Positions 2,621-19,637 of a stretch of DNA of 20,059 nt are shown one piece after another. Each line of letters begins with the position of its first letter. Within the stretch, counting starts at the first letter, position 1. The DNA comes from a virus (taxonomy: Duplodnaviria > Heunggongvirae > Uroviricota > Caudoviricetes). The stretch spans positions 1-20,059 of the IMG/VR virus record IMGVR_UViG_2734482785_000006; one strand, written 5' to 3'. The notes below the pieces were generated by a model that did not search any database, was not told the DNA's origin, and saw nothing but the letters and a program-made list of their open reading frames with translations. The translations under genes and the position numbers were made by a program.

Positions 2621-2953
2621 ATTGATAACAGATGGCGTTGCAGCGGGGTTGTCACTTAAGCGTATGGTCAACCTGACAACCCGGTGTCCTCAACGGGGAA
2701 GAAATAACCCCGCCATACTTACCGCCGCACCATTTCGCGGGTTGCCACAACCGGAAGCGCACGGTCGACGAAAATTTAACGAAAGGCTATCTATGAACCA
2801 GCTACCTCGCCGTGCGCTTTCGCGTTATGGCTGACTTTTCAGGGAAATATCCTTTCAGTAAACTGTCAGTGCCGGATGCTCACCCGTGTCCGGCGCACGT
2901 ACTCCACCTCACCCGTGGAGAACTCCTTAATCACCAACCCTCAGGAGGGTGAA

Positions 2954-3229
2954 ATGTCGACTGAAAATGATGAAATCATTAACTCCCTGATACGCCAGAT
3001 TAATAATTTTGATAAAGCATTGCAGCATGCTGCGGCGCGTAGTGATATAACTCTTTTAGCAATTTCATTTCTTGCATCTGTTATGGATAAAAATGAAGTC
3101 GTACGACAGAGTCCTGTTGATTATATCGACTCGCTTCAACCCGGCACTTTCAATCATGAGAGCTTCAATCATGAGAAAGAGCATGTTAAGTCTGTAATTA
3201 ATTCTCTTATTTTGAATCAAAAGAATTAA
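2954..3229 (+). CDS. Hypothetical protein (91 aa), AT-rich accessory gene inserted in the early-left operon on the opposite strand
   Basis: ATG at 2954 preceded by strong GGAGGG Shine-Dalgarno; protein-like composition (MSTENDEIINSLIRQINNFDKALQHAAARSD...); contains a 15-bp tandem duplication encoding FNHESFNHE; no family recognised. Confidence 0.5.
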   Translation: MSTENDEIINSLIRQINNFDKALQHAAARSDITLLAISFLASVMDKNEVVRQSPVDYIDSLQPGTFNHESFNHEKEHVKSVINSLILNQKN

Positions 3230-3527
3230 TGCTTTTTGTTGCAAAGTAATTTTCAAGTGGTTCTATTCGAATCCCTTTCTTTTTCATTAACAAGCCAAAC
3301 CCCTTATCAATGATGTCCATTAGATCCAGGAAGTATTTTTCATGTAAATCCTGGTTATCAGAGAGCTGCTTCTCTTCGTACAGACCGATAAAGGCACGAC
3401 GCACGTTACCGGATATAGTATCGATGGTTTCTTTTTCTACGGTACTCAGGTCAAGAGTCGCCAGTTGGGAACGAACTATATTCGCTGCCATTTCCTGGAA
3501 TTGCATTGGTAAATCTTTAAATTCCAT
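3207..3527 (-). CDS. Hypothetical protein (106 aa), AT-rich, acidic/basic mixed
   Basis: ATG at 3527..3525 with GAGG upstream; product MEFKDLPMQFQEMAANIVRSQLATLDLSTVEKETID...; 3' end overlaps the convergent plus-strand gene by 23 bp; no family recognised. Confidence 0.5.
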   Translation of the reverse strand: MEFKDLPMQFQEMAANIVRSQLATLDLSTVEKETIDTISGNVRRAFIGLYEEKQLSDNQDLHEKYFLDLMDIIDKGFGLLMKKKGIRIEPLENYFATKSINSFDSK

Positions 3528-3549
3528 TATTAGCCTCGTTGGTTAGCTA

Positions 3550-3768: not shown

Positions 3769-3949
3769 AGTGATTCCTCGCAATGCTGTTTCCCCTTAAC
3801 GCCGGGGTGGCGGAACAAAGACCTGCTGCATAGTTAAAGTTGAACCCTGCCGTCATGTTCATACGCCTCGGGCTGGCTACTTAACCCCTGACCACTGCCG
3901 GGTAACTCGAAGTATTGCCCTGCATTCTGTGGGGCGGGGTGGGTTGGTA

Positions 3950-3996
3950 TTTGTAGTTTAATAAACATTAAACTCAAGTCAAGTAAAAACTAAACC
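3950..3996 (-). promoter_or_regulatory. PL-like early-left promoter with overlapping operator palindrome
   Basis: On the minus strand: TTGACT (rc of 3977..3982), 16-bp spacer, TAAACT (rc of 3955..3960). A perfect 8-bp inverted repeat AGTTTAAT-aaac-ATTAAACT spans 3955..3974, and an ACTAAAC motif lies at 3989..3995. Confidence 0.4.
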
Positions 3997-4066
3997 ACAA
4001 CACGAAACAAACACAACGCTTTTGATAAAGTCGTTGCGGTTGTTATGTTTCTATTGGTAGTGAAAG

Positions 4067-4345
4067 TTAGGGAAACTGGCGTCTTGCGTGGATCACGTTT
4101 ACTACTTCAACGCTTGATGTTGTTACGCGGTATAGAATTATATAGTTAGGGTGGGCCACAATCTCACGCAAGCCAGGCACCCTGTCGCTTGGTGGGTATA
4201 AATACGGGTGTTCGGATAACGGCAGCACACAACCCCTTAATCGCTGCCATAAGCGTTCTGCCGCATCTATGTCGAAACGAGCAATATAACCAGTTATATC
4301 ATCCAAGTCGGTATCTGCGCTTTCAAGCCATAATACGGGTAACAT
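4067..4345 (-). CDS. parE2: ParE-family toxin (ParE2-like, 92 aa)
   Basis: ATG at 4345..4343, one nt after the antitoxin stop; product MLPVLWLESADTDLDDITGYIARFDIDAAERLWQRL...YIILYRVTTSSVEVVNVIHARRQFP has the RelE/ParE fold signature and matches recalled ParE2 of E. coli O157 prophages in size. Confidence 0.75.
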   Translation of the reverse strand: MLPVLWLESADTDLDDITGYIARFDIDAAERLWQRLRGCVLPLSEHPYLYPPSDRVPGLREIVAHPNYIILYRVTTSSVEVVNVIHARRQFP

Positions 4346-4346
4346 T

Positions 4347-4538
4347 TTACTGCTTGCTCCGTTCCTTGCGCATTTTAGCAAAGCGTTCTGCCATTCTGCG
4401 CTCAACTTCGTCATGAGGAATTGCTGGGCGCGGATCTGCAAGGCTCGTTGCTACTTTCGCACGCAGCCATTCGTTGTAACTGTTTTCTTGTTCAATGGTT
4501 TCAAACTCAGAAACCATTGGTGAAAGGGCTCTATTCAT
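4347..4538 (-). CDS. paaA2: PaaA2-like antitoxin (63 aa)
   Basis: ATG at 4538..4536 with GGAGG 7 nt upstream; product MNRALSPMVSEFETIEQENSYNEWLRAKVATSLADPRPAIPHDEVERRMAERFAKMRKERSKQ; size and position upstream of the ParE toxin fit PaaA2. Confidence 0.7.
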   Translation of the reverse strand: MNRALSPMVSEFETIEQENSYNEWLRAKVATSLADPRPAIPHDEVERRMAERFAKMRKERSKQ

Positions 4539-4558
4539 GTTTCCTCCGGTTTTATAAC

Positions 4559-4930
4559 TCAGGCGCGGCGGCATTTTTGCGCCGCAATCCATCTCGCTAT
4601 GAGGTCTTCCATTGATTCTTTTTTCTGCTTTAACTCGCTGATTATCTGGCGTTGCTCATCCTCAGGGAAGGCTGAAAAAATCTGCAATAATTCCAGTTGA
4701 TTAGACGTTAACCCTGCATGTGGTGGAGAAACCTCCGGTTGTTCTGCGTATTCCGCATCCAGATACCCTTCCGGCATCCCGTATGTTTGCTCTATTCTTC
4801 TGGCAGCCTTTTCTCCAAACGAGGCTCTCCCACTCATTAGTTGAGATAGGTAGCTCTTCTCTTTGGGTGGCAGAGTTTTATCTTTAAACCACTCCTTGAG
4901 ACGTAAACGGCGAATTTCTTTTTTTTGCAT
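4559..4930 (-). CDS. paaR2: HTH repressor, PaaR2/DicA/CI-like (123 aa from ATG 4930; alternative GTG start at 4993)
   Basis: Product MQKKEIRRLRLKEWFKDKTLPPKEKSYLSQLMSGRASFGEKAARRIEQTYG... with C-terminal LELLQIFSAFPEDEQ motif resembling DicA-type repressors. No Shine-Dalgarno before ATG 4930 but a TTGCTT-17bp-GATAAT promoter ends 7 bp upstream, consistent with a leaderless mRNA as for lambda cI. Confidence 0.7.
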   Translation of the reverse strand: MQKKEIRRLRLKEWFKDKTLPPKEKSYLSQLMSGRASFGEKAARRIEQTYGMPEGYLDAEYAEQPEVSPPHAGLTSNQLELLQIFSAFPEDEQRQIISELKQKKESMEDLIARWIAAQKCRRA

Positions 4931-4939
4931 GTGGTAATT

Positions 4940-5020
4940 ATCTTTAGTAATCACTAAACAAGCAAATACTTGACTTAATGGTTTATTAAACACTAAACTC
5001 GCAAAAAAACACTAAACCGA
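4940..5020. promoter_or_regulatory. Divergent OR-like promoter/operator region between repressor and cro-like gene
   Basis: Three direct copies of CACTAAAC (4952..4959, 4991..4998, 5010..5017), a TTTAGT-aatc-ACTAAA palindrome (4943..4958), and a rightward TTGACT (4970..4975), 18-bp spacer, TAAACT (4994..4999) promoter; the leftward promoter for the repressor is described under that gene. Confidence 0.45.
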
Positions 5021-5027
5021 GGAAGGT

Positions 5028-5330
5028 ATGACATTAAAAGAGTTTATTAAATCATTGAGAGTTGGTGATGCTAAGAAATTCGCGGCCAGACTTGGTGTAT
5101 CGCCATCTTACTTATCGCAAATGGCGTCTGGACGAGCAGCTATATCTCCAACCCGCGCCCTTATGATCGAATCTGCGACGGAAGGCCAGGTAAGTAGGGC
5201 GGAGCTACGACCCCATGATTGGGAGCTTATTTGGCCTGAGTATGCGAGCGGCATTCGTTTGGGGCAAACACATGTAGTTCATGCTGAAGGTGATTGTAGT
5301 GCATGCTTATCTGATGGAGTTGATTCATGA
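5028..5330 (+). CDS. Cro/YdaS-like HTH DNA-binding protein (100 aa)
   Basis: ATG at 5028 with GAGGAAGG Shine-Dalgarno; product has HTH core FAARLGVSPSYLSQMASGRAAISPTRALMIESATEGQVSRAELRPHDW typical of the YdaS/Cro family; divergent from the repressor gene. Confidence 0.7.
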   Translation: MTLKEFIKSLRVGDAKKFAARLGVSPSYLSQMASGRAAISPTRALMIESATEGQVSRAELRPHDWELIWPEYASGIRLGQTHVVHAEGDCSACLSDGVDS

Positions 5331-5752
5331 AAATCAAGCATGAACACATCCGCATGGCGATGAATGCCTGGGCACATCCGGACGGCGAGAAAGTACCGGC
5401 TGCAGAGATTACCAAAGCGTATTTCGAACTGGGAATTACGTTCCCGGAACTGTATGACGACAGCCATCCGGAAGCCCTGGCACGCAATACTCAGAAAATT
5501 TTCCGCTGGGTGGAGAAAGACACCCCTGATGCGGTTAAAAAAATTCAGGCGTTGTTACCAGCTATCGAAAAAGCAATGCCACCTCTGCTGGTGGCCCGAA
5601 TGCGCAGCCATAGCTCAGCCTATTTTCGGGAACTAGTGGAGACGCGGGAACGACTGGTGAGAGACGCTGATGATTTTGTCGCAGTGGCGATCGCTGGTTT
5701 CAACCAGATGAATCGTGGTGGCCCTGCAGGAAATATTGTGGCTGTGCATTGA
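5327..5752 (+). CDS. ydaT: YdaT-like (CII-like) protein (141 aa)
   Basis: Start overlaps the previous stop (ATGA); N-terminus MKIKHEHI... matches my recollection of Rac YdaT; position after the cro-like gene. Confidence 0.6.
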   Translation: MKIKHEHIRMAMNAWAHPDGEKVPAAEITKAYFELGITFPELYDDSHPEALARNTQKIFRWVEKDTPDAVKKIQALLPAIEKAMPPLLVARMRSHSSAYFRELVETRERLVRDADDFVAVAIAGFNQMNRGGPAGNIVAVH

Positions 5753-5823
5753 CTCGCAATATTCATACCGGATCACTTCCGGCAATTTGTGAGTAAAAAG
5801 ATTCGGTATCAAAAGAGGTGAGT

Positions 5824-6864
5824 ATGGCTAACGCCTGGCTCAGATTATGGCATGACATGCCAAATGATCCTAAGTGGCGAACAATTTCCAGGGTGTCAGG
5901 ACAGCCAATCGCAACAGTGATGGCTGTGTATATCCACCTTCTGGTGAGCGCGTCACGAAATGTCACGACATGTCACGGCGTGTCACTACGTGGTCACATT
6001 GATGTCACGACGGAAGATTTAGCAAGTGCGCTTGATGTGACGGAAGAAGTAATTGATTCAATTTTACAGGCAATGCAGGGGCGGGTACTTGATGGAGATT
6101 TAATCACTGGATGGGAAAAACGCCAGGTACTGAAAGAGGACAATGGCAACGTTTCACAAACCGCGAAATCCCCGGCAGAGCGCAAGAGAGCGCAGCGCGA
6201 GAGGGAAAAATTACGAAAACAGAATGAGGGGTGTCACGACGAGTCACGCATATGTCACGACATGTCACGACGAGTCACGACAGATAAAGATACAGATAAA
6301 GAATTAAACCCCACACATAACGCGCACGTGCGCGAGAGTGCTCCGACCAGTGAGTCGAGTGGTACGCCGTTGCAGGCAGCAGAACCTGCATCCCTGGATG
6401 GCCTGAGCGAACCCATCGGGAAATTTCCGATGGCCGATGGCTGGCATCCGTCGCCGGATTTTCGACGGCGGGCTGCACTGTGGGGAGTTGCTTTGCCGGA
6501 GCCGGAATTTACACCTGCTGAACTTGCCGCCTTCCGGGACTACTGGGCAGCGGAGGGGAAAGTTTTCACGCAGGTTCAGTGGGAGCAGAAATTCGCCCGT
6601 CACGTAAATCACGTCAGGGCGCAGGTTAAACCAGTCAGCAAGGGGGTGAACCATGCAGCAGCACCAGGTGGTACCGCATCACGGGCAGTTCAGGAAATTC
6701 GGGCAGCACGTGAACAGTGGGAACGTGAAAACGGATTTATCAGCGACGGAAACGGCGTGGAAGCTGTGGGAACTCATGGGGGAGGTTTATTCGAACCGCT
6801 GGACCCAGAAGAACGGGGCCGCACCTTCGAAGCTCTGGATTGCACAGATTGGTGCGATGACTGA
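5824..6864 (+). CDS. Replication initiator, lambda O-like / YdaU-like (DUF1376-type N-terminus), ~346 aa
   Basis: ATG at 5824 five nt after GAGG (track start 5818 is GTG); N-terminus MANAWLRLWHDMPNDPKWRTI... resembles Rac YdaU; gene contains two clusters of GTCACG iterons followed by an AT-rich stretch, as for ori-lambda inside O. Confidence 0.65.
   Translation: MANAWLRLWHDMPNDPKWRTISRVSGQPIATVMAVYIHLLVSASRNVTTCHGVSLRGHIDVTTEDLASALDVTEEVIDSILQAMQGRVLDGDLITGWEKRQVLKEDNGNVSQTAKSPAERKRAQREREKLRKQNEGCHDESRICHDMSRRVTTDKDTDKELNPTHNAHVRESAPTSESSGTPLQAAEPASLDGLSEPIGKFPMADGWHPSPDFRRRAALWGVALPEPEFTPAELAAFRDYWAAEGKVFTQVQWEQKFARHVNHVRAQVKPVSKGVNHAAAPGGTASRAVQEIRAAREQWERENGFISDGNGVEAVGTHGGGLFEPLDPEERGRTFEALDCTDWCDD
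5952..6010. repeat. Iteron cluster 1: six copies of (T)GTCAC(G) at ~10-bp spacing
   Basis: cgtcacgaaa tgtcacgaca tgtcacggcg tgtcactacg tggtcacatt gatgtcacga read directly in the sequence. Confidence 0.55.
6231..6300. repeat. Iteron cluster 2 (five GTCACG copies at ~10-bp spacing) plus adjacent AT-rich direct repeat; candidate replication origin
   Basis: gtgtcacgac gagtcacgca tatgtcacga catgtcacga cgagtcacga followed by cagataaaga tacagataaa gaattaaacc. Confidence 0.55.
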
Positions 6865-7318
6865 GCAGCAAATCCGGCAGGTCTGCCGCCAGTGCATGGA
6901 CCGCTGCCGGGCGGGTGAAACATGGCCTCCGGACCTGGCTGAGTTTGTGGCGCTGATTTCGGAAAGCGGGGCCAATCCATTCAGTCTGACGGTGGATGCC
7001 GTGATGGAGGAGTACCGCCGCTGGCGCAACGAGTCCTGGCGATACGACGGGAGCGATAAATATCCGTGGTCTCAGCCTGTGCTGTATCACATTTGTCTCG
7101 AGATGCGTTCAAAGGGGATTGAGCGCCAGATGACCGAAGGGGAGTTAAAACGGCTTGCAGAACGGCAGCTGACGAAATGGGCAAAGCATGTTGGTAATGG
7201 CTTCAGCGTTCCGCCCGTACGGCGGCAACTGGCAGCACCAGAACGCCCGTCGGGGCCAACACCAATTGAGTTGCTGAAACAGGAATATGAGCGCCGGAAA
7301 GCGGCTGGTTTTGTATGA
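6653..7318 (+). CDS. Lambda P-like replicative helicase loader (start uncertain: ATG 6653, 6776 or 6857)
   Basis: C-terminal half (DGSDKYPWSQPVLYHICLEMRSKG...MTEGELKRLAERQLTKWAKHV) resembles recalled lambda P (ESYPWKSNAHYW...LTDAELRRKAADEL). ATG 6653 has an AAGGGGGTG Shine-Dalgarno; ATG 6857 overlaps the O-like stop. Confidence 0.55.
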   Translation: MQQHQVVPHHGQFRKFGQHVNSGNVKTDLSATETAWKLWELMGEVYSNRWTQKNGAAPSKLWIAQIGAMTEQQIRQVCRQCMDRCRAGETWPPDLAEFVALISESGANPFSLTVDAVMEEYRRWRNESWRYDGSDKYPWSQPVLYHICLEMRSKGIERQMTEGELKRLAERQLTKWAKHVGNGFSVPPVRRQLAAPERPSGPTPIELLKQEYERRKAAGFV

Positions 7319-9441: not shown

Positions 9442-9807
9442 ATGTCACTGACGAAAAAACAACGTGCAGAACTGCGCATGAAGTTCGGTGGTCGCTGCGC
9501 TTATTGCGGCTGCGAACTTGGCGAAAAGTGGCATGCAGACCATGTAAAACCGGTCATCCGTTTTGATGGAAATATGCTTCACCAGGAACGTGACGATATA
9601 TCCAACATGGTTCCGGCATGCCACCCATGCAATCTGCACAAGCATTGCAGTAGCCTGGAAGATTATCGGCGAATTATCAGTGATGGTCGTCGTGAATTCC
9701 TTGCGTCCGGGAAAGGCAAGGCGCTGGTTCGTATGGGATTGGTTGAAATGAAATCTGACCCAGTTGTGTTCTGGTTTGAAAAATATCAAGAAGGGGCTAC
9801 GGCATGA
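9442..9807 (+). CDS. HNH endonuclease (121 aa)
   Basis: ATG at 9442 after AAGGAAAG; HNH signature CAYCGC...WHADHVKPV...[14 protein letters not shown]. Confidence 0.7.
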
Positions 9808-10352: not shown

Positions 10353-10652
10353 TTATAAGAAATCGGTTTCATAACTTTGCCCACCATGATAGATACCGAC
10401 AATAAAGACTTTTCTGCTATCAACGGCAAAAGCAATAATCGTTCTGTGGCGGAAATGAGTTACCCGCATCCCCTGGCGAATATCATCGCGTTTATTGCCC
10501 CGATGCGGGAATGTAGAAAACCCATCAAGATAATCAAGAAGCGCATTGGCATAATTGTCAGCAATGACGTTCCCTGCTTTCTCCGTTATATACCTGTGCA
10601 GGTTGATTATTTGTTGTTCGGCCTCAGGAGTAATGATGACTTCATATGTCAT
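10353..10652 (-). CDS. RelE/ParE-family toxin (99 aa)
   Basis: ATG at 10652..10650; product MTYEVIITPEAEQQIINLHRYITEKAGNVIADNYANALLDYLDGFSTFPHRG...IVGIYHGGQ has the ParE/RelE pattern; directly downstream of the antitoxin gene. Confidence 0.7.
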   Translation of the reverse strand: MTYEVIITPEAEQQIINLHRYITEKAGNVIADNYANALLDYLDGFSTFPHRGNKRDDIRQGMRVTHFRHRTIIAFAVDSRKVFIVGIYHGGQSYETDFL

Positions 10653-10657
10653 GCAGA

Positions 10658-10915
10658 TTACTTCCCGGATCGAATCGCGGCGCGAACCTGTGAAATGGAG
10701 CGTCCGTTGTTTGGGTTTTCGCGGATAGAATCAAGAGAGGGGGCGGCTGAATGCGTTAACCACGCTTCGATTGCTTTATCGCGCTCATTCAGTGCGCGAA
10801 GCCCTTCACGAATGACCTCGCTTTCTGAAGCATAGGCACCGGAAGCCACACGGGCGCGCACCATGTCAGCCATTTCGTTAGTTAATGTAATGCTGAATTG
10901 TTGGGTTGTACGCAT
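10658..10915 (-). CDS. ParD-like ribbon-helix-helix antitoxin (85 aa)
   Basis: ATG at 10915..10913; product MRTTQQFSITLTNEMADMVRARVASGAYASESEVIREGLRALNERDKAIEAW... typical of ParD/RHH antitoxins. Confidence 0.65.
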   Translation of the reverse strand: MRTTQQFSITLTNEMADMVRARVASGAYASESEVIREGLRALNERDKAIEAWLTHSAAPSLDSIRENPNNGRSISQVRAAIRSGK

Positions 10916-11050
10916 GGTAAACCTCACGGAGTAGGATAGAACACCATTTGATGATAGCACGTTGCCTGTTGACGACAACAGAAATCAGAGACAATATTGC
11001 CGCACGCCAGCTTGAACAACTGGCACCTGCTGCGCCAGCAGAGAAAACCG

Positions 11051-11323
11051 ATGGCGCACAATACCAAACATCACAATTCTGATACCGCCCCTGCCAGCAG
11101 GCAAGGGCGGCGTTCTCACACATTCAAATATGACTGGTATCAGCATGCCCCCTGCACTGAAGAACAGGCCGAATGGCTGATACAGAACTACCGCAGACGT
11201 GGGTATGAGTTTAGGAAAGCCCTCAGCCTCGATTATCGTCACTGGATAATCTACGTCAGACTCCCTTATTCCGAACGCCCACCGCGTCCGTCCCGCACAT
11301 TCCAGCAACGCATCTGGAGGTAA
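11051..11323 (+). CDS. Hypothetical basic protein (90 aa from ATG 11051; TTG alternative at 10997)
   Basis: Stop is 1 nt before the DUF968 start, suggesting co-transcription; weak ribosome-binding site; competing minus-strand ORF 10985..11398 judged antisense. Confidence 0.35.
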   Translation: MAHNTKHHNSDTAPASRQGRRSHTFKYDWYQHAPCTEEQAEWLIQNYRRRGYEFRKALSLDYRHWIIYVRLPYSERPPRPSRTFQQRIWR

Positions 11324-11324
11324 C

Positions 11325-12374
11325 GTGCGGGTATTACTTCGACCTGTTCTGGTACCGGAACTCGGGCTGGTGGTCCTTAAGCCAGGTCGTGAATCCATGC
11401 AGGTATTTCACAATCCTCGAGTGCTGGTGGAGCCGGAATCGAAAAGCATGTGCGGCCTGCCATCCGGAGTCGTCCCTGCCGTTCGCCAGCCGCTGGCGGA
11501 GGATAAATCATTACTGCCATTTTTCAGCGATGAGCGGGTGATTCGTGCTGCTGGCGGCGCTGGGGCACTGTCTGACTGGCTGTTGCGTCATGTCAAATCC
11601 TGCCAGTGGCCTCATGGTGACTATCATCACAGTGAAATCGTCATACATCGTTACGGTACCGGCGCGATGGTGTTGTGCTGGCACTGCGACAACCAGCTGC
11701 GTGACCAGACATCCGAATCACTCGGGCAACTTGCTCATCAAAATCTGTCAGCATGGATGATTGACGTCATACGCCATGCAATGAATGGCACGCAGGAGAG
11801 GGAGTTATCGCTGGCTGAATTATCCTGGTGGGCGGTCTGCAATCAAGTGGCGGACGCGCTTCCGGAGGCAGTATTACGTCGTTCTCTGGGGTTACGTGCG
11901 GAAAAAATCCGCTCAGTATACCGCGAAAGCGACATCGTACCGGGAGAGCAGACCGCCACCAGCATACTGAAGCAGCGCACAAAAAATATTGCGCCACCAC
12001 CTCATGCCCACCAGCAACAGAACCCACCACAGGAAAAGACGGTGGTAAACGTTGCCGTTGATCCTGAGTCTCCTGAATCTTTCATGAAGCGGCCTAAACG
12101 TCGCCGCTGGGTAAATGAGAAATACACGCGCTGGGTAAAGACACAGCCGTGTGCGTGTTGCGGTAAGCCAGCCGACGATCCCCATCACCTGATTGGTCAT
12201 GGTCAGGGCGGAATGGGAACAAAATCCCACGATATTTTCACGCTACCGCTGTGTCGGGAGCATCACAATGAACTTCATGCTGATCCGCTGGCATTTGAAG
12301 AAAAGCATGGTTCCCAGATTGATTTAATTTTTCGTTTTCTTGATCACGCCTTTGCAACCGGCGTGCTCGGGTAA
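11325..12374 (+). CDS. DUF968 family protein (YdfU-like), 349 aa
   Basis: GTG at 11325 five nt after GGAGG; C-terminal Cys/His cluster CACCGKPADDPHHLIGHGQGGMGTKSHDIFTLPLCREHHNELH and conserved position upstream of rusA. Confidence 0.65.
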   Translation: MRVLLRPVLVPELGLVVLKPGRESMQVFHNPRVLVEPESKSMCGLPSGVVPAVRQPLAEDKSLLPFFSDERVIRAAGGAGALSDWLLRHVKSCQWPHGDYHHSEIVIHRYGTGAMVLCWHCDNQLRDQTSESLGQLAHQNLSAWMIDVIRHAMNGTQERELSLAELSWWAVCNQVADALPEAVLRRSLGLRAEKIRSVYRESDIVPGEQTATSILKQRTKNIAPPPHAHQQQNPPQEKTVVNVAVDPESPESFMKRPKRRRWVNEKYTRWVKTQPCACCGKPADDPHHLIGHGQGGMGTKSHDIFTLPLCREHHNELHADPLAFEEKHGSQIDLIFRFLDHAFATGVLG

Positions 12375-12386
12375 AAGAGGTTACTG

Positions 12387-12758
12387 ATGCGTATAGAGTT
12401 TGTTTTGCCTTACCCGCCGACGGTGAACACCTACTGGCGACGTCGTGGCAGCACATATTTTGTATCAAAAGCCGGTGAGTGTTATCGCCGTGATGTGGCG
12501 CTCATTGTTCGCCAGCAGCGGCTGAAATTAAATCTGTCCGGAAGGCTGGCAATAAAAATTACTGCAGAGCCACCGGATAAACGCCGTCGTGACCTGGACA
12601 ATATTCTGAAAGCACCACTGGATGCGCTGACGCATGCGGGACTGCTTATCGACGACGAGCAGTTTGATGAAATTAATATTGTGCGCGGTCAGCTCGTTCC
12701 TGGTGGTCGGCTGGGCGTGAAGATTTACGAAATTACAGGTGATAACGATGGCGCGTGA
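12387..12758 (+). CDS. rusA: Holliday junction resolvase RusA
   Basis: Product [21 protein letters not shown]...[29 protein letters not shown] matches recalled RusA motifs. Confidence 0.8.
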
Positions 12759-13134
12759 TATTCAGCAGGTTATGGAGCGGTGGGGAGCATGGGCTGCAAA
12801 CAATCACGAAGATGTGTCATGGGCGTCAATAGCTGCTGGTTTTAAAGGATTAATCCCGCCGAAAGTGAAATCACGCCCTCAGTGTTCTGATGATGATGCA
12901 ATGATAATTTGTGGCTGTATGGCCCGGTTGAACAAGAAAAATCAGGATTTGCACGATTTGTTGGTGGATTATTACGTAGGTGGAATGACTTTTATGGGGC
13001 TGGCACGAAAGCATGGGTGTTCGGATACCTGTATTGGCAAGCGCCTGCAGAAAGCGGAAGGGGTTATTGATGGCATGTTGATGATGCTTGATATCCGACT
13101 GGAGATGGACAGATACGTAGAACGAATCATGTAG
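12748..13134 (+). CDS. quuD: Late-gene antiterminator Q (QuuD-like), 128 aa
   Basis: ATG at 12748 seven nt after AGGTGA, overlapping the rusA stop; product [35 protein letters not shown]... closely resembles recalled DLP12 QuuD. Confidence 0.7.
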
Positions 13135-13415: not shown

Positions 13416-13979
13416 ATGACAACTCAAATCTCTGTTGAAACTCTCTCCCCGATCACCCATAACCAGATTCCTGTAATTACCACTGAACTTTTGGCGCAGC
13501 TTTATGGCACCGAAATTCTGAATATCCAGGTTAACTTCACCAGAAACAAAGAGCGTTTTGTCGCAGGGAAGCACTTTTTTAAAGCAGCGGGTGAGGAATT
13601 AAAAAAATTGCGACTTACTTTAAGTAAGTCACAAAATCCCATCTCTCCCAAAACCCGCTCCCTCATTCTCTGGACAGAACGAGGCGCAGCCCGTCACGCC
13701 AAAATGCTCGAGACCGATCAGGCGTGGGATGTGTTCGAAAAACTGGAAGACTGTTATTTCAGCCAGAAACAGCCACCAGCAGCACAAAACTCCCCCACCG
13801 AAAATGATGGATGCGCATTACTGATCCACTTCGATAAACACGGTCAGGTCGACTTCACGGAAAAAGTACCCGCCGATGCGATGGTATGCACTCTGGAACG
13901 GTTTAAATTTTATCTGGAACAACGCGGCTGGATCGTTGCCCGTAAAGAGCAGCTGGTGGAACGACTGATGCGGCTTTAA
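13416..13979 (+). CDS. ORF6N/Rha-like antirepressor-type regulatory protein (187 aa)
   Basis: ATG at 13416 after GAGGG; N-terminal region PVITTELLAQLYGTEILNIQVNFTRNKERFVAGKHFFKAAGEELKKL resembles the ORF6N/Rha domain; family call is from memory. Confidence 0.5.
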   Translation: MTTQISVETLSPITHNQIPVITTELLAQLYGTEILNIQVNFTRNKERFVAGKHFFKAAGEELKKLRLTLSKSQNPISPKTRSLILWTERGAARHAKMLETDQAWDVFEKLEDCYFSQKQPPAAQNSPTENDGCALLIHFDKHGQVDFTEKVPADAMVCTLERFKFYLEQRGWIVARKEQLVERLMRL

Positions 13980-14054: not shown

Positions 14055-14083
14055 AAACCCGCCACTGAGCGGGTTTTTTTTAT
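14055..14083 (+). terminator. Rho-independent terminator
   Basis: AAACCCGC-cactga-GCGGGTTT stem-loop followed by TTTTTTAT. Confidence 0.6.
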
Positions 14084-14203
14084 GCCTGAAAAACGGTACA
14101 GGACGTTAAACGCGCTGGTGGTTGCGAATACTGGTCTTTCGGCTTGTATTTTTGTAAATCGATATATACTTATCTTGTGACCAGTAATGTCAGGGCAATT
14201 GAT

Positions 14204-14947
14204 ATGAATGAAGCTTGTTCTGTTGTTTTTGTTCATTCCCCGTTTGTTGTGCTCTTTGAAGGAAAAGAGCTCTCTCTGGAAAGTGGTAGTGCACTTCTTG
14301 TCAGGGGGGGAGCTGGATCGTTATTGCCCTTTTCGGAATGTTTTCGGCGAATAAGTCTCAGTGAATCGACAATTATCCGTTACCTGTTGTGTGGAGACGA
14401 AAAACAGGATGTAGTTTTAGTCCGGCAAATACCACGATATCTTTGCGTGAGTTTTCCCAAGGCAGAATTGATGGGCATCCTGATTGATTATCTTTGTGAG
14501 GAAAAGATTCATACGGACAATTTAGCGGAAATGCTTTCCTTTTCGTGTCTGGCGTTTTTCTCATCAGAGAAAATGTTTTCGTCGTTTCTGACCGCGTGTA
14601 TTGGCAATATTAGTGACAGGCTTAGTGCATTGTTTCGTACGGACATTGCAGCAAACTGGACTCTGAGAGATGTGTCTTCGCGGTTATGTATCAGTGAAAG
14701 TTTGTTAAAAAAAAGACTGAAAGAAGAAGGCACCTGTTTCAGTGAGTTGTTGCTTACAGAGAGAATGAGAATGGCAGCAATGCTGTTGAATCAATCTCGT
14801 TGCGCCATCAACAGAATCGCTGCTCAGTGTGGCTATAATTTTACATCTTATTTTATCAGCGTATTCAGGAGTTATTTTGGTGTTACACCGGCAGGTTACA
14901 GGATGGCTGCATTCAATGAGATGAGTTTAAGTGTTACTCAAGAATAA
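14204..14947 (+). CDS. AraC-family transcriptional regulator (247 aa; track start at 14144 is an alternative)
   Basis: C-terminal AraC-type HTH WTLRDVSSRLCISESLLKKRLKEEGTCFSELLLTERMRMAAMLLNQSRCAINRIAAQCGYNFTSYFISVFRSYFGVTPAGYR; gene is AT-rich relative to flanks. Confidence 0.75.
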   Translation: MNEACSVVFVHSPFVVLFEGKELSLESGSALLVRGGAGSLLPFSECFRRISLSESTIIRYLLCGDEKQDVVLVRQIPRYLCVSFPKAELMGILIDYLCEEKIHTDNLAEMLSFSCLAFFSSEKMFSSFLTACIGNISDRLSALFRTDIAANWTLRDVSSRLCISESLLKKRLKEEGTCFSELLLTERMRMAAMLLNQSRCAINRIAAQCGYNFTSYFISVFRSYFGVTPAGYRMAAFNEMSLSVTQE

Positions 14948-14972
14948 TTGAATTTTGCACTCATTGAAAACA

Positions 14973-14997
14973 GGCTCGCTGCGGCGGGCCTTTTTTA
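14973..14997 (+). terminator. Rho-independent terminator
   Basis: GGCTCGC-tgcg-GCGGGCC stem (one G-U pair) followed by TTTTTTAT directly after the AraC-family gene stop. Confidence 0.5.
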
Positions 14998-15086
14998 TAT
15001 CCGCGCCACGTCCGGCGCACATCACATCAGATAACACCACACAAAAGGTATCTGCGGGTGCCTTTGACGGGGTGTTGTTTTTTTAC

Positions 15087-15110
15087 GGGCCGACAGTGGC
15101 CCTTTTTATT
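15087..15110 (+). terminator. Terminator-like hairpin immediately upstream of the lysis cassette
   Basis: GGGCC-gacagt-GGCCC followed by TTTTTATTT; lies 4 nt upstream of the AGGAG ribosome-binding site of the first lysis gene. Confidence 0.4.
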
Positions 15111-16973: not shown

Positions 16974-17324
16974 ATGCCATCACGAATCCCCCGCGCATGT
17001 CGTAAGCGAGGCTGCGCAGGCACAACAACAGACAGTTCGGGCTACTGCGATAAACATCGGGGTGAAGGCTGGGTGCAGCACCAGCGCGGACTAAGCCGCC
17101 ACCAGCGTGGCTATGGCTCAAAATGGACGGTGATTCGAGCCCGTATTCTGAAGCGCGATAAAGGTCTGTGTCAGTTGTGTCTGCGTGTCGGTGTGGTGCG
17201 CGAGGCGAAAACTGTGGACCACATCATTCCGAAAGCTCATGGTGGCACGGATGCAGACAGTAACCTGCAGAGTCTGTGCTGGCCCTGCCATAAAGCAAAA
17301 ACTGCGCGCGAACGTATCAACTGA
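16974..17324 (+). CDS. HNH endonuclease associated with the terminase module (116 aa)
   Basis: HNH signature CQLCLRVG...VDHIIPKAHGGTDADSNLQSLCWPCHKAK; position immediately upstream of the small terminase subunit, as in HK97-like packaging modules. Confidence 0.7.
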   Translation: MPSRIPRACRKRGCAGTTTDSSGYCDKHRGEGWVQHQRGLSRHQRGYGSKWTVIRARILKRDKGLCQLCLRVGVVREAKTVDHIIPKAHGGTDADSNLQSLCWPCHKAKTARERIN

Positions 17325-17439: not shown

Positions 17440-17910
17440 ATGTCAGGAAAATCTGTTGCGCCCGGAAGAGGGAGAAAGCCGAAGCCGACTACCCGTAAGG
17501 AGCTGGCAGGCAATCCCGGCAAGCGGGCATTAAATAAGTTTGAGCCAAAATTCACGCCGATCACCCATGCTGACCCTCCCGAGTGGTTTGATGAAACCGC
17601 TCGCCATATGTGGGATACCATTATTCGTGAGCTCTGTGCCCAGCGAGTTCTTTATGTTACTGATTTGCATAATGTCGTTGCATTCTGCACTGCTTTTCGT
17701 AACTGGCATGAGTCGCAGCAGGAGGTTATGCGCGTTGGGATTACGGTAGAGAGTGAGGCGGGGCCAAAGAAAAACCCGGCACTCACGGCGGCAAATGAGG
17801 CCGCCAGACAAATGGTGACATTCGGTAGTTTATTAGGACTCGATCCTGCCAGTCGGCAGCGGCTTATCACGCCGAAGCAGGGGAGCGATAATCCATTTAA
17901 AAACCTATGA
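17440..17910 (+). CDS. Terminase small subunit, P27 family (156 aa)
   Basis: N-terminal [28 protein letters not shown] motif characteristic of the P27-type small terminase; directly precedes the large subunit. Confidence 0.75.
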
Positions 17911-19637
17911 CACGAAAAAATTACGTGAACGTTAACGCCGCAAATCAGTATGCACGTGACGTGGTTCGCGGAAAAATTCAGGCTTGCCGTTATGTCGTTC
18001 TGGCCTGCCAGCGTCACCTTGATGACCTGGAAAATTCAGTTAAAAAAAACTATCCGTTTAAATTTGATAAGGATAAAGCTGAGCGGGTGGCGAAATTTAT
18101 CCAGCTTTTGCCACACACCAAAGGGGAGTGGGCATTTAAACGGATGCCCATTACGCTTGAACCCTGGCAGTTGTTCTGTATCTGTGTTGTGTTTGGGTGG
18201 GTGAGAAAAAAGAGCGGTCTGCGTCGATTTCGCGAGGCTTACAACGAAATACCCCGTAAAAACGGGAAATCAGCAATGTCTGCTGGCGTTGGTCTGTATA
18301 TGTTTGCCTGCGATGATGAATTTGGCGCTGAAGTGTATTCCGGGGCCACAACAGAGAAACAGGCGTGGGAAGTTTTTCGTCCAGCCAGACTGATGGCGCA
18401 ACGCACGGAGCCATTGCGCGAAGCATTTGGTATTGAAGTACATGCTCAAAGCATGAGCCGTCCGGAGGACGGTGCCCGTTTTGAACCGTTGATTGGAGAT
18501 CCCGGAGACGGCGCGTCGCCGAGTTGCGCTCTCATTGATGAATATCACGAGCATCAGACCGATGCGCTTTACCAGACGATGCAAACCGGGATGGGGGCGC
18601 GTCGTCAGCCGCTGATTTTTGGTATCACCACTGCGGGATATAACATTGAAGGACCATGCTACGACAAACGTCGTGAAGTAATCGAAATGCTTGAAGGGAT
18701 TGTGCCCAATGATGAACTGTTCGGGATTATTTATACCATTGACGACGGGGATGACTGGACAGATCCGGCGATATTGCGTAAAGCGAACCCCAATATGGGG
18801 ATTTCTGTCTACAGTGATTACCTGTTATCTCAACAGCGCGCGGCAATTAACAACCCACGAAAAGTGGGCGTGTTCAAAACGAAACATCTGAATATCTGGG
18901 TGGCAGCAAAAGACGCCTTCTTCAATCTTGTGAACTGGCAGAAATGTGAGGACAGGAGTCTGACGCTGGAGCGTTTTGAGGGGCATACCTGCATTCTGGC
19001 GTTTGACCTTGCGCGAAAGCTGGATTTGAACGCAATGGTACGACTTTTTACCCGAGAGATTGACGGTAAAACGCATTATTATTGTGTTGCACCCAAATTT
19101 TTTGTTCCCTACGACACAATCTACAGCGCTGATGTGACAGACAGTCGCACAGCAGAACGTTATCAGAAGTGGGTTGAAGGGGGATTTATTACCGTTACCG
19201 ATGGTGCGGAAATTGATTACCGGGAGATCCTTGAGTCTGCGAAAGAAGCAAATCGCTTAAACGCTGTGGAGGAGTCACCTATAGATCCCCACGGAGCCAC
19301 AAACCTTTCTCACCACCTTGCTGATGAAAACTTAAACCCTATTACCATCATTCAGAACTACACCAATATGTCGGATCCCATGAAGGAACTTGAGGCGGCT
19401 ATCGAGGCCGGGCGTTTTCATCATGATGGTAATCCTGTGATGACATGGTGTATCAGCAACGTGATTGGAAAGCACATTCCCGGCGACGATGATGTTGTTC
19501 GTCCGATCAAACAAGGCAACGAAAACAAAATCGATGGTGCTGTGGCGCTGATTATGGCAATTGGTCGTTGCATGCTATTTGAGAAAGAAGGCACGCTGTC
19601 TGACCACATTGAGTCCTACGGGATCCGCTCGCTTTAA
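17907..19637 (+). CDS. Terminase large subunit (576 aa)
   Basis: ATG overlaps the small-subunit stop (ATGA); size and ATPase-region motifs ([35 protein letters not shown]) fit the Terminase_1 family. Confidence 0.85.

Follow-up and report, generated by a model that had tools for sequence, protein, structure and literature searches.

Organization of the locus

The window analysed here is a stretch of 20,059 nucleotides from a record of a Caudoviricetes virus (IMG/VR IMGVR_UViG_2734482785_000006), and the locus under study comprises two divergent groups of genes, paaR2–paaA2–parE2 and ydaS–ydaT, with their promoters and operators (Table 1). All elements named in the preliminary description of this DNA were recovered at their coordinates; the genes lie at 4067..4930 on the minus strand, the intergenic region spans exactly 97 bp, and ydaS starts at 5028. 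On the left, the module is flanked by exonuclease, dicB/ydfD-type, and ydfC-type genes; on the right, by DnaT-domain O-like and lambda P-like replication genes, followed by DUF968, RusA, Q, lysis, and terminase genes. Judging by the sequence, this gene context is lambdoid. No tRNA genes were found in the window.

Table 1. Features of the predicted immunity module (positions in the window).
Feature	Position	Strand	Description
PL	3982..3955	minus	TTGACT-16-TAAACT; promoter scan
OL operator cluster	3956..4008		five GTTTAG-type half-sites overlapping PL, left of parE2
parE2	4067..4345	minus	ParE-family toxin, 92 aa
paaA2	4347..4538	minus	antitoxin, 63 aa, intrinsically disordered, without DNA-binding domain
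paaR2	4559..4930	minus	CI-analogue repressor, 123 aa, N-terminus MQKKE
OR region	4931..5027	both	97 bp, back-to-back promoters PRM and PR, operators 4942..5017
PRM	-35 TTGCTT 4965..4960, 17 nt, -10 GATAAT 4942..4937	minus	read from sequence
PR	4970..4999	plus	TTGACT-18-TAAACT; promoter scan
ydaS	5028..5330	plus	Cro analogue, 100 aa, divergent from paaR2
YdaT operator OM	5320..5337		TTGATTCATGAAAATCAA; ydaS/ydaT junction, marks PRE region
ydaT	5327..5752	plus	CII analogue, 141 aa

The genes paaR2, paaA2, and parE2 are tightly spaced on one strand, with paaR2 the first in the operon: the 20-nt gap between paaR2 and paaA2 contains a ribosome-binding site (GGAGG), and the paaA2 stop codon is 1 nt away from the parE2 ATG. 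Within the operon, the promoter scan gave a single weak match, in the interior of parE2, and nothing promoter-like in the paaR2–paaA2 gap; from the parE2 stop codon to PL, the minus strand has no predicted site resembling an intrinsic terminator. The -10 box of PRM lies 6 nt from the paaR2 ATG (4930) and no Shine–Dalgarno sequence is present, hence the layout is that of a leaderless transcript.

The hexamers of PR and PL are identical. When the whole 20-kb window was scanned for the half-site GTTTAGTRW with at most one mismatch allowed, 24 matches were found, compared with 11.7 ± 3.2 in shuffled sequences, and half of them (12 out of 24) fall within segments 3956..4008 (five half-sites) and 4942..5050 (seven), together about 160 bp out of 20 kb, so that the region had been rightly called “operator-rich.” The similarity of the two clusters extends to longer direct repeats: 3956–3975 of OL is 90% identical to 4981–5000 of OR (D4), and 3980–3996 of OL is 82% identical to 5002–5018 of OR (D5). 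The YdaT site TTGATTN6AATCAA, as defined by Prolic-Kalinsek et al. (2023, PMC9986795), has a single exact match in the window, at the ydaS/ydaT junction.

In PaaR2, a linker connects an N-terminal DNA-binding domain to a helical C-terminal domain that resembles DicA. Since it has no match in Pfam, its identity rests on matches to PDB (residues 1–65 are identical to 7NKV / 8C3K, “Phage repressor protein CI”), to PHROG (phrog_5736, transcriptional regulator, E 1.6e-39), and, in the C-terminal domain, to DicA. According to BLASTP, residues 56–119 of PaaR2 align with residues 68–130 of K-12 DicA (30% identity, E 2e-7; C-terminal half only), and the helical motif LxxxELELLxxFxAxPExEQ is common to both proteins; the NCBIfam DicA model NF007257 matches residues 70–119 with E 9e-7 and 28.8 bits, below the cutoff of 101. 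The DicA-like C-terminal motif noted earlier is thus real, whereas membership of full-length PaaR2 in the DicA subfamily was rejected, as the model score is below the cutoff and the C-terminal part alone aligns. Indeed, the N-terminus of DicA, a standard XRE HTH, is unrelated to the DNA-binding domain of PaaR2. The DicA repressor of the K-12 Qin prophage occupies the same map position, and its left-arm neighbours are of the same ydfC, dicB, and ydfD types; unlike the window, Qin has no toxin–antitoxin (TA) genes after dicA, its relBE and hokD lying elsewhere.

The remaining proteins are assigned by profile matches. YdaS matches PF15943 (E 3.9e-12), HTH_3, weakly P22_Cro, and phrog_35 (transcriptional repressor), in line with the claim that the HTH gene diverges from a Cro-like gene. 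YdaT matches PF06254 and phrog_163 (CII-like activator, E 2e-44). PaaA2 matches PF21217 (E 1e-19, above the cutoff) and is identical to PDB 3ZBE / 5CW7 over residues 2–63 (62 residues). ParE2 matches PF05016 (E 5e-16, 59.5 bits with a cutoff of 23), and 91 of its 92 residues are identical to 5CW7_B. The same-strand order, the two short gaps, and these Pfam families agree with the description of the pair as PaaA2-like and ParE2-like genes that directly follow the repressor in the rexAB position; homology of the pair to RexA or RexB was not detected, Pfam giving only PaaA2 and ParE. In RefSeq, PaaR2 is labeled “hypothetical protein,” PaaA2, “RelB family antitoxin,” and YdaT, “toxin.”

The window also contains a second TA system, a canonical ParD(RHH)–ParE pair at 10353..10978; when relatedness and possible cross-talk were considered, BLASTP gave no alignment between its ParE and ParE2. 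Similarly to canonical parDE, the pair studied here has a ParE-fold toxin (PF05016), a labile antitoxin directly upstream, and near-overlapping genes, and post-segregational killing has been reported for its CP-933P counterpart (PMC8630535). In contrast to canonical parDE, PaaA2 lacks an RHH DNA-binding domain, and transcription is governed by a separate regulator of the phage switch.

Correspondence to the CP-933P switch and to lambda

The arrangement in which an immunity repressor and a TA pair share an operon is already known: it was shown by experiment for paaR2–paaA2–parE2 / ydaS–ydaT of CP-933P (= Sp12) from Escherichia coli O157:H7, published in 2021 (Jurenas et al., mBio 2021, PMC8630535), and the CP-933P region is also treated by Prolic-Kalinsek et al. 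(2023, PMC9986795). The locus of the window is the same in gene order, spacing, the 97-bp OR, the PR and PL hexamers, half-sites, and the YdaT site, its PL corresponding to PL933P; it differs in the backbone and in the C-terminal half of YdaT. PaaR2, PaaA2, ParE2, and YdaS of the window are 98–100% identical to the characterized or crystallized proteins of the CP-933P system. Compared with the copy of O157:H7 TR01, PaaR2 has 121 out of 123 residues identical, both substitutions being in the linker, PaaA2 has no amino acid differences, ParE2 has a single substitution (G19 vs. S19), YdaS has one substitution (99/100 identical), and the OR region is 100% identical; a small number of substitutions occur close to OL (at 3953, 3975, and 3997–4005). 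YdaT has 23 substitutions, mostly past residue 60, and is divergent from the CP-933P type in its C-terminal half. The replication genes also differ (an HTH and ATP-binding pair in the O157 copy vs. the DnaT-domain O-like and lambda-P-like genes of the window), and the late region of the window resembles that of phiP27. The CP-933P paaR2–paaA2–parE2 system was reportedly the subject of work by Hallez et al. in 2010.

The start mapping and gel-shift checks suggested in the preliminary description had in fact been published for the CP-933P sequence. The leaderless paaR2 transcript was demonstrated by 5′ RACE and N-terminal sequencing yielded MQKKE, so that the leaderless promoter follows both from the sequence studied here and from experiment on a near-identical one; both PaaR2 and YdaS bind the 97-bp region in EMSA and DNase I footprints (PMC8630535). 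GFP fusions showed repression of PR, PRM, and PL (left of parE2), PL933P being repressed by PaaR2 and YdaS, and the YdaT-activated PRE, bistability, and addiction were all shown on the CP-933P sequence, with most cells in the ydaST-on state in the plasmid reporter (PMC8630535). For the near-identical CP-933P proteins, toxicity of ParE2, its neutralization by PaaA2, and post-segregational killing on plasmids have been reported, and PaaA2 is protease-labile (PMC8630535).

The resemblance to lambda cI–rexA–rexB/cro/cII is one of organization. In both cases, a repressor gene and a cro gene diverge from a short multi-operator region, the repressor transcript is leaderless, a second operator set lies at the leftward PL, a CII-type activator is accompanied by a PRE-like promoter, and cargo genes are co-transcribed behind the repressor. 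At the same time, lambda CI and PaaR2 have no detectable sequence similarity and PaaR2 lacks the S24 autocleavage domain, lambda has three operators whereas the published analysis described four 18-bp inverted repeats (PMC8630535), YdaT is a POU-domain protein structurally unrelated to CII (PMC9986795), and a ParE toxin and its PaaA2 antitoxin stand in place of RexAB as the cargo.

Taking this together, we assign the region, with a probability of almost nine in ten, to the immunity modules (lysis/lysogeny switches) of lambdoid Escherichia prophages, specifically to the CP-933P type.

Repressor family and exchange of the module

In phages vB_EcoS-640R1 and Tritos, homology to the window ends at approximately 3941/3944 and resumes at approximately 5311/5322, and between these conserved flanks they carry annotated cI and dicC/cro genes that replace block 3945..5310. 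Hence, as far as sequence comparison goes, the module behaves as an exchangeable imm cassette. The survey of homologues covered 107 PaaR2 loci. Every PaaR2 copy at 98–100% identity is accompanied by PaaA2/ParE2, provided that the locus reaches far enough downstream; two loci end at paaR2. Homologues with 44–58% identity, from Xenorhabdus, Photorhabdus, Arsenophonus, Morganella, Raoultella, Enterobacter, and Yersinia, retain the divergent YdaS-like gene and lack PaaA2/ParE2 by tblastn; this absence was established with the E. coli proteins and inspection of open reading frames at 12 loci, a procedure that very divergent TA genes could escape. In Yersinia aleksiciae and Mycoavidus, the PaaR2-type N-terminal domain is fused to Peptidase_S24 (PF00717). 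Many of the distant homologues, including the two S24-bearing proteins, keep the leaderless promoter and the layout of operators. These comparisons indicate that it is YdaS, not the TA pair, with which the repressor is associated across the family.

As no S24 peptidase domain was found by Pfam in the 123 residues of PaaR2, while homologues of its N-terminal domain carry PF00717, PaaR2 can be placed in a CI-type family as a non-cleavable representative. PaaR2 reportedly does not respond to mitomycin C (PMC8630535). A search of the 20-kb window for a LexA box or an early antirepressor gave no convincing candidate. The sole perfect CTGT-N8-ACAG, at 10966..10981, was rejected as a LexA box, since its centre is GC-rich and it lies where the open reading frame of the second parD begins; it is more likely, by its sequence and position, to be the own operator of the second parD system. 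The ORF6N-domain gene at 13416..13979 was rejected as an antirepressor, being downstream of Q and lacking a LexA-like site.

An alternative is a “split antitoxin” of which PaaR2 would be the separated DNA-binding half; it would then serve to regulate the TA operon only, and some other protein would be the prophage repressor. PaaA2 has no DNA-binding domain of its own, the first description of the operon presented it as a TA system of three components (PMC8630535), and PaaR2 has neither a Pfam match nor an S24 domain. Moreover, a rare sister variant of the module, with four genes, has an extra XRE-type regulator directly upstream of paaA–parE, which shows that the regulator next to a TA pair may be encoded separately. 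The variant may correspond to paaR1–paaA1–parE1, the paralogous system of CP-933M; O157:H7 was not found among the full-length matches listed for it. We nevertheless regard a dedicated TA regulator as extremely improbable. PaaR2-type operators are present on either side of the cassette, at OR and at OL/PL, and PaaR2 represses PR and PL in published assays (PMC8630535). The DNA-binding domain occurs fused to an S24 peptidase and, in distant homologues, next to YdaS and the leaderless promoter with no PaaA2/ParE2; the cassette takes the place of cI and cro between conserved flanks. Finally, the 20-kb window holds no other repressor candidate in the immunity position. An HTH protein confined to its own promoter, with another repressor in charge of the early promoters, is therefore not what these data describe, and the proposal that the regulator of the TA locus is a CI-type repressor stands, supported by PR/PL repression, the cassette swap, the TA-free YdaS-linked homologues, and the S24 fusions. 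We infer that PaaR2 keeps this particular prophage silent.

Whether the module still serves a phage bears on the same reading. The reference copy, CP-933P, is cryptic and defective (PMC9986795; PMC8630535), the module-bearing prophages are mosaic, and the largest share of the window found in a single place of any E. coli genome is at most 55%, as might be expected of a decaying remnant that has no current role and is kept only through the addictiveness of the TA pair. This is improbable given that the five genes of the window are all intact and the module has accumulated very few substitutions in more than 60 viral contigs, that the copies of OR compared show no or almost no differences, that the replication, Q, lysis, and terminase genes of the window look complete, and that the module is found whole and intact in Evi, an isolated coliphage. 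In the Evi record, parE2 is unannotated.

The toxin–antitoxin pair within the switch

According to the model that we propose for the immunity module, a leaderless PRM-type transcript would carry paaR2, paaA2, and parE2, and PaaR2 would bind the repeated operators in OR and OL. It would thereby shut off the leftward PL as well as the divergent PR, from which ydaS–ydaT and, further on, the O/P replication genes are read; at low concentration, PaaR2 would stimulate its own promoter. YdaS is expected to compete for the PaaR2 operators, which would yield a bistable switch, while YdaT would bind TTGATTN6AATCAA at the ydaS/ydaT junction and turn on the leftward PRE, re-supplying paaR2–paaA2–parE2 transcripts. 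The TA pair would be a later insertion into the slot of lambda rexAB and, having no DNA-binding antitoxin, would rely on the phage repressor network for its transcription. With the labile PaaA2 being degraded by ClpXP/ClpAP, cells that lose the cassette, or have it swapped, would be poisoned by ParE2, and the prophage and its immunity type would thereby be stabilized.

One suggestion of the preliminary description, that toxin control is tied to maintenance of lysogeny, was not borne out in its simple form. The TA operon is transcribed in both states of the switch, and activation of ParE2 was not seen under the conditions tested (PMC8630535); because of this, toxin control is not simply coupled to lysogeny.

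Addiction, the role favored by the authors who characterized the system (PMC8630535), is in our view most likely the natural role of the TA pair. A RexAB-like role in superinfection exclusion or abortive infection, in which infection would disturb PaaA2 and ParE2 would kill or arrest the cell, protecting lysogens, is compatible with PaaR2 as the repressor. Such a role would fit the operon position and co-transcription with the repressor, the TA genes having been said to “replace rexB and rexA” (PMC9986795), the protease lability of PaaA2, the reports of many type II TA systems as phage-defence elements, and the presence of the module in 583 out of 5426 complete E. coli genomes (approximately 11%). 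Still, it seems rather unlikely: PADLOC, applied to the five switch and TA proteins and the second parDE, gave nothing meaningful, none of its models matching PaaR2, PaaA2, or ParE2, a literature search found no paper reporting PaaA2–ParE2 assayed against phages, and those favoring addiction saw no ParE2 activation in the conditions used (PMC8630535).

A broader proposal, which we put forward tentatively and consider doubtful, combines two parts: in live phages with this cassette (Evi and, perhaps, the prophage of the window), paaA2–parE2 would act in a RexAB-like manner (in abortive infection or exclusion, or as a guard that kills cells whose cassette has been replaced by a heteroimmune one), and the PaaR2 family would be an unrecognized widespread class of CI repressors with interchangeable C-terminal domains, either SOS-cleavable S24 or non-cleavable DicA-like. 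If this is true, the non-cleavable DicA-like domain implies a RecA-independent route of induction.

For the window itself, the value of these results is mainly correct annotation. More generally, the locus offers a textbook-style case of a TA pair that cedes its own regulation to the lysis/lysogeny switch of a phage, and it bears on the question of why prophages carry TA systems, for addiction or for defence. With the cassette boundaries, the TA-free and S24-bearing homologues, the leaderless promoter shared across genera, and phage Evi at hand, questions of lysogeny and exclusion now become experimentally tractable.

The operon and its published counterpart

As the preliminary description had claimed, an HTH gene, a PaaA2-like antitoxin gene and a ParE2-like toxin gene form one operon, paaR2–paaA2–parE2: the first two are separated by 20 nt containing a GGAGG ribosome-binding site, the last two by 1 nt, and the antitoxin and the toxin match the respective Pfam families (see the table). 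The window PaaA2 is identical to that in PDB:3ZBE and PDB:5CW7, and ParE2 matches its counterpart in PDB:5CW7 at 91 of 92 residues. PaaR2 has no match in Pfam, and is without an autocleavage domain; its residues 1–65 are identical to PDB:7NKV and PDB:8C3K, deposited as "Phage repressor protein CI." The DicA-like C-terminal motif noticed earlier is genuine, residues 56–119 aligning with residues 68–130 of K-12 DicA (E 2e-7). Membership in the DicA subfamily was ruled out (28.8 bits vs. a cutoff of 101).

Divergence from a Cro-like gene, ydaS, across an operator-rich region was likewise found; the 97-bp gap carries the rightward promoter PR and clustered GTTTAGTRW half-sites. This half-site has 24 matches in the window vs. 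11.7 ± 3.2 in shuffles, and half of the 24 fall inside 3956..4008 and 4942..5050. These operator regions, OL at the leftward promoter PL beside parE2 and OR in the gap, are linked by a repeat (3956–3975 vs. 4981–5000, 90% identical). Upstream of the paaR2 ATG, on the minus strand, stand TTGCTT and GATAAT, 17 nt apart, with 6 nt between the latter and the ATG; a Shine-Dalgarno sequence is absent, and the layout is leaderless. The YdaT operator, TTGATTN6AATCAA, occurs once in the window, at the ydaS/ydaT junction, and past ydaT the plus strand encodes a DnaT-domain O-like gene and a lambda-P-like gene.

This system is already known. The locus was examined in CP-933P, a defective prophage of Escherichia coli O157:H7 (Jurenas et al., 2021; PMC8630535; PMC9986795), where 5′ RACE placed the start of the paaR2 promoter PRM at the ATG, in line with the leaderless promoter suggested earlier, and protein sequencing gave the N-terminus MQKKE (PMC8630535), as in the window ORF. 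EMSA showed binding of both PaaR2 and YdaS to the 97-bp region, and in footprints they protected 78 and 65 bp, respectively; both proteins repress PRM, PR, and PL, the latter bearing three similar operators left of parE2; PRM is stimulated at low PaaR2 levels, and YdaT activates PRE between ydaS and ydaT (PMC8630535). The YdaT site has been defined, and parE2 and paaA2 are said to "replace rexB and rexA," the position assigned to the pair in the preliminary description (PMC9986795). Thus, what was inferred earlier has already been published, as have most of the checks then proposed.

The 1.5-kb core is present at ≥80% length in 583 of 5426 complete E. coli genomes, O157:H7 among them, and those listed as matching best are ~98% identical. 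Compared with O157:H7 strain TR01, the window has no differences in OR, an identical PaaA2, one differing residue each in ParE2 and YdaS, two in PaaR2, both in the linker, and 23 in YdaT, mostly in its C-terminal half. However, the backbone is a different mosaic from that of CP-933P, with different replication genes and a phiP27-like late region, and hence the window copy represents one more carrier of this known cassette rather than a new system. The replication module (5818..7318), DnaT-domain O-like and lambda-P-like here, consists of HTH and ATP-binding proteins in TR01, and at most 55% of the window is found in one place of any E. coli genome. A recombination junction lies inside ydaT (5400..5800), identity to the O157:H7 copy dropping sharply in the C-terminal half.

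Coordinates of features (loci outside the window in their own coordinates)
Feature	Coordinates	Strand	Remarks
117-aa ORF	2876..3229	plus	no PHROG match
106-aa ORF	3207..3527	minus	phrog_6937, function unknown
PL	3982..3955	leftward	promoter scan; both hexamers same as PR
parE2	4067..4345	minus	92 aa; ParE_toxin PF05016, E 5e-16
paaA2	4347..4538	minus	63 aa; PaaA2 PF21217, E 1e-19
paaR2	4559..4930	minus	123 aa
OR region	4931..5027		97 bp
PR	4970..4999	plus	promoter scan; TTGACT-18-TAAACT
ydaS	5028..5330	plus	YdaS/Cro-like HTH
YdaT operator	5320..5337
ydaT	5327..5752	plus	phrog_163, CII-like transcriptional activator
HNH endonuclease	9442..9807
Second ParE toxin	10353..10652	minus	PF05016, E 4.5e-10
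ParD RHH antitoxin ORF	10658..10978	minus	PF03693
137-aa ORF upstream of ParD	10985..11398	minus	no Pfam match
Q antiterminator	12739..13134
ORF6N-domain protein	13416..13979		downstream of Q
Stem-loop plus T-run	near 14058..14083
AraC-family regulator	14144..14947
HNH endonuclease	16974..17324
Terminase, small and large	17440..19637
Phage Evi parE2 (L002, LR597642.1)	14828..15103
Four-gene variant (L057; also L058–L066, L068)	4001..5313		E. coli strains 06-00048 and SCU-171
S24 fusion, Yersinia aleksiciae (L100)	4001..4633		E 5e-24
S24 fusion, Mycoavidus MAG (L104)	4001..4657		E 3e-17

The immunity cassette and the PaaR2 family

Phages vB_EcoS-640R1 and Tritos have a left flank in common with the window to ~3941/3944 and a right flank from ~5311/5322, and carry annotated cI plus dicC/cro between them; thus, region 3945..5310 (PL/OL, parE2, paaA2, paaR2, OR, and ydaS) behaves as a single immunity cassette that can be exchanged as a whole, the TA pair included. 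Further left, 2940..3529 (~590 bp) has no homology to TR01, 640R1, or Tritos, which are collinear on either side; the 117-aa and 106-aa ORFs of the table are found in this stretch.

We surveyed 107 loci of the family from viral contigs and species-representative genomes. Where PaaR2 is 98–100% identical, PaaA2/ParE2 come next in every locus reaching far enough downstream. Homologs 44–58% identical (Xenorhabdus, Photorhabdus, Arsenophonus, Morganella, Raoultella, Enterobacter, and Yersinia) keep the divergent YdaS-like gene, and tblastn found no PaaA2/ParE2 at their loci; in 12 of these, inspected by ORFs, ordinary left-arm genes occupy the TA place. Hence, judging from these sequences, the conserved partner of PaaR2 is the Cro-like gene rather than the TA pair, which fits the published suggestion that the pair was inserted into a pre-existing immunity region. 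Taken together, the published repression of PR, PRM, and PL (PMC8630535), the cassette swap, and the YdaS-linked homologs support the earlier view of PaaR2 as a CI-like repressor.

The PaaR2-type N-terminal domain also occurs fused to Peptidase_S24 in two proteins, which are classical cleavable CI/LexA-type repressors, and the family thus has both cleavable (CI/LexA-like) and non-cleavable members, the latter with the DicA-like C-terminus. Many distant homologs, including both S24-bearing proteins, retain the leaderless layout: −35 TTGCTT, operator GTTTAGnnnTTACTAA in the spacer, −10 GATAAT or CAAAAT, 6 nt, and ATG, with the PR −35 back-to-back.

A rare four-gene variant of the operon was found in full in 17 of the 5426 complete E. 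coli genomes. It consists, in this order, of a PaaR2-like gene (72–74% identical, with altered operators, still leaderless), an extra XRE-type HTH_3 regulator with the same DicA-like C-terminal domain, PaaA (92–95%), and ParE (88–95%).

Other features of the window

A second, canonical ParD/ParE pair (minus strand; 10353..11398 with the 137-aa ORF upstream) lies in the nin-like region directly upstream of a DUF968/ydfU gene, in the slot held by relBE-hokD in K-12 Qin. Its toxin has no similarity to ParE2 by BLASTP. This 1.25-kb stretch is present to 80% or more in 328 E. coli genomes, and those listed annotate the two genes as ParD/ParE. The ParD ORF has at its 5′ end a perfect palindrome, CTGTTGACGACAACAG (10966..10981), which agrees with the CTGT-N8-ACAG outline of a LexA box but is GC-rich in the centre; it is more likely a ParD operator than an SOS box. 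In Stx phages, stx sits downstream of Q, a place taken in this prophage by the ORF6N-domain gene, followed by the stem-loop plus T-run and then the AraC-family regulator gene; no stx or tRNA genes were found within the window. The second HNH gene is directly upstream of the terminase genes, as is usual where cos packaging is HNH-assisted.

A probable lambda-like switch with toxin–antitoxin cargo

The best-supported model for the locus is a lambda-like switch, in which the parts of CI, Cro, and CII would be played by PaaR2, YdaS, and YdaT, respectively. During repression, PRM would drive the TA pair; once the switch flips, YdaT-activated PRE would probably do so, which would explain why the pair was reported to be transcribed in both states while ParE2 was not activated. 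The CP-933P locus is bistable (PMC8630535). PaaR2 is reported to be unresponsive to mitomycin C (PMC8630535), and neither a LexA box nor an early antirepressor could be convincingly identified within the window.

Since the CP-933P locus stabilizes an unstable plasmid and PaaA2 turnover is Clp-dependent (PMC8630535), the role that appears most likely for the pair is addiction, either to the immunity cassette or to the prophage; for a chromosomal prophage this is inferred. Phage exclusion by PaaA2–ParE2 is speculative: PADLOC models gave no match to the locus proteins, and our literature search found no report of a test.

Phage Evi (LR597642), described as a coliphage that was isolated from infant faeces (PMC10910852), carries the module intact (PaaR2 99%, PaaA2 98%, ParE2 99%, YdaS 100%, and YdaT 96%), its OR differing from that of the window by one base. 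Its intact parE2 is missing from the deposited annotation, and RefSeq labels for E. coli read "hypothetical protein" for PaaR2, "RelB family antitoxin" for PaaA2, and "toxin YdaT family protein" for YdaT; these labels are outdated relative to the experimental work of 2021–2023. Low for discovery, the value of the window copy is modest for annotation and as a pointer to a tractable live-phage model.
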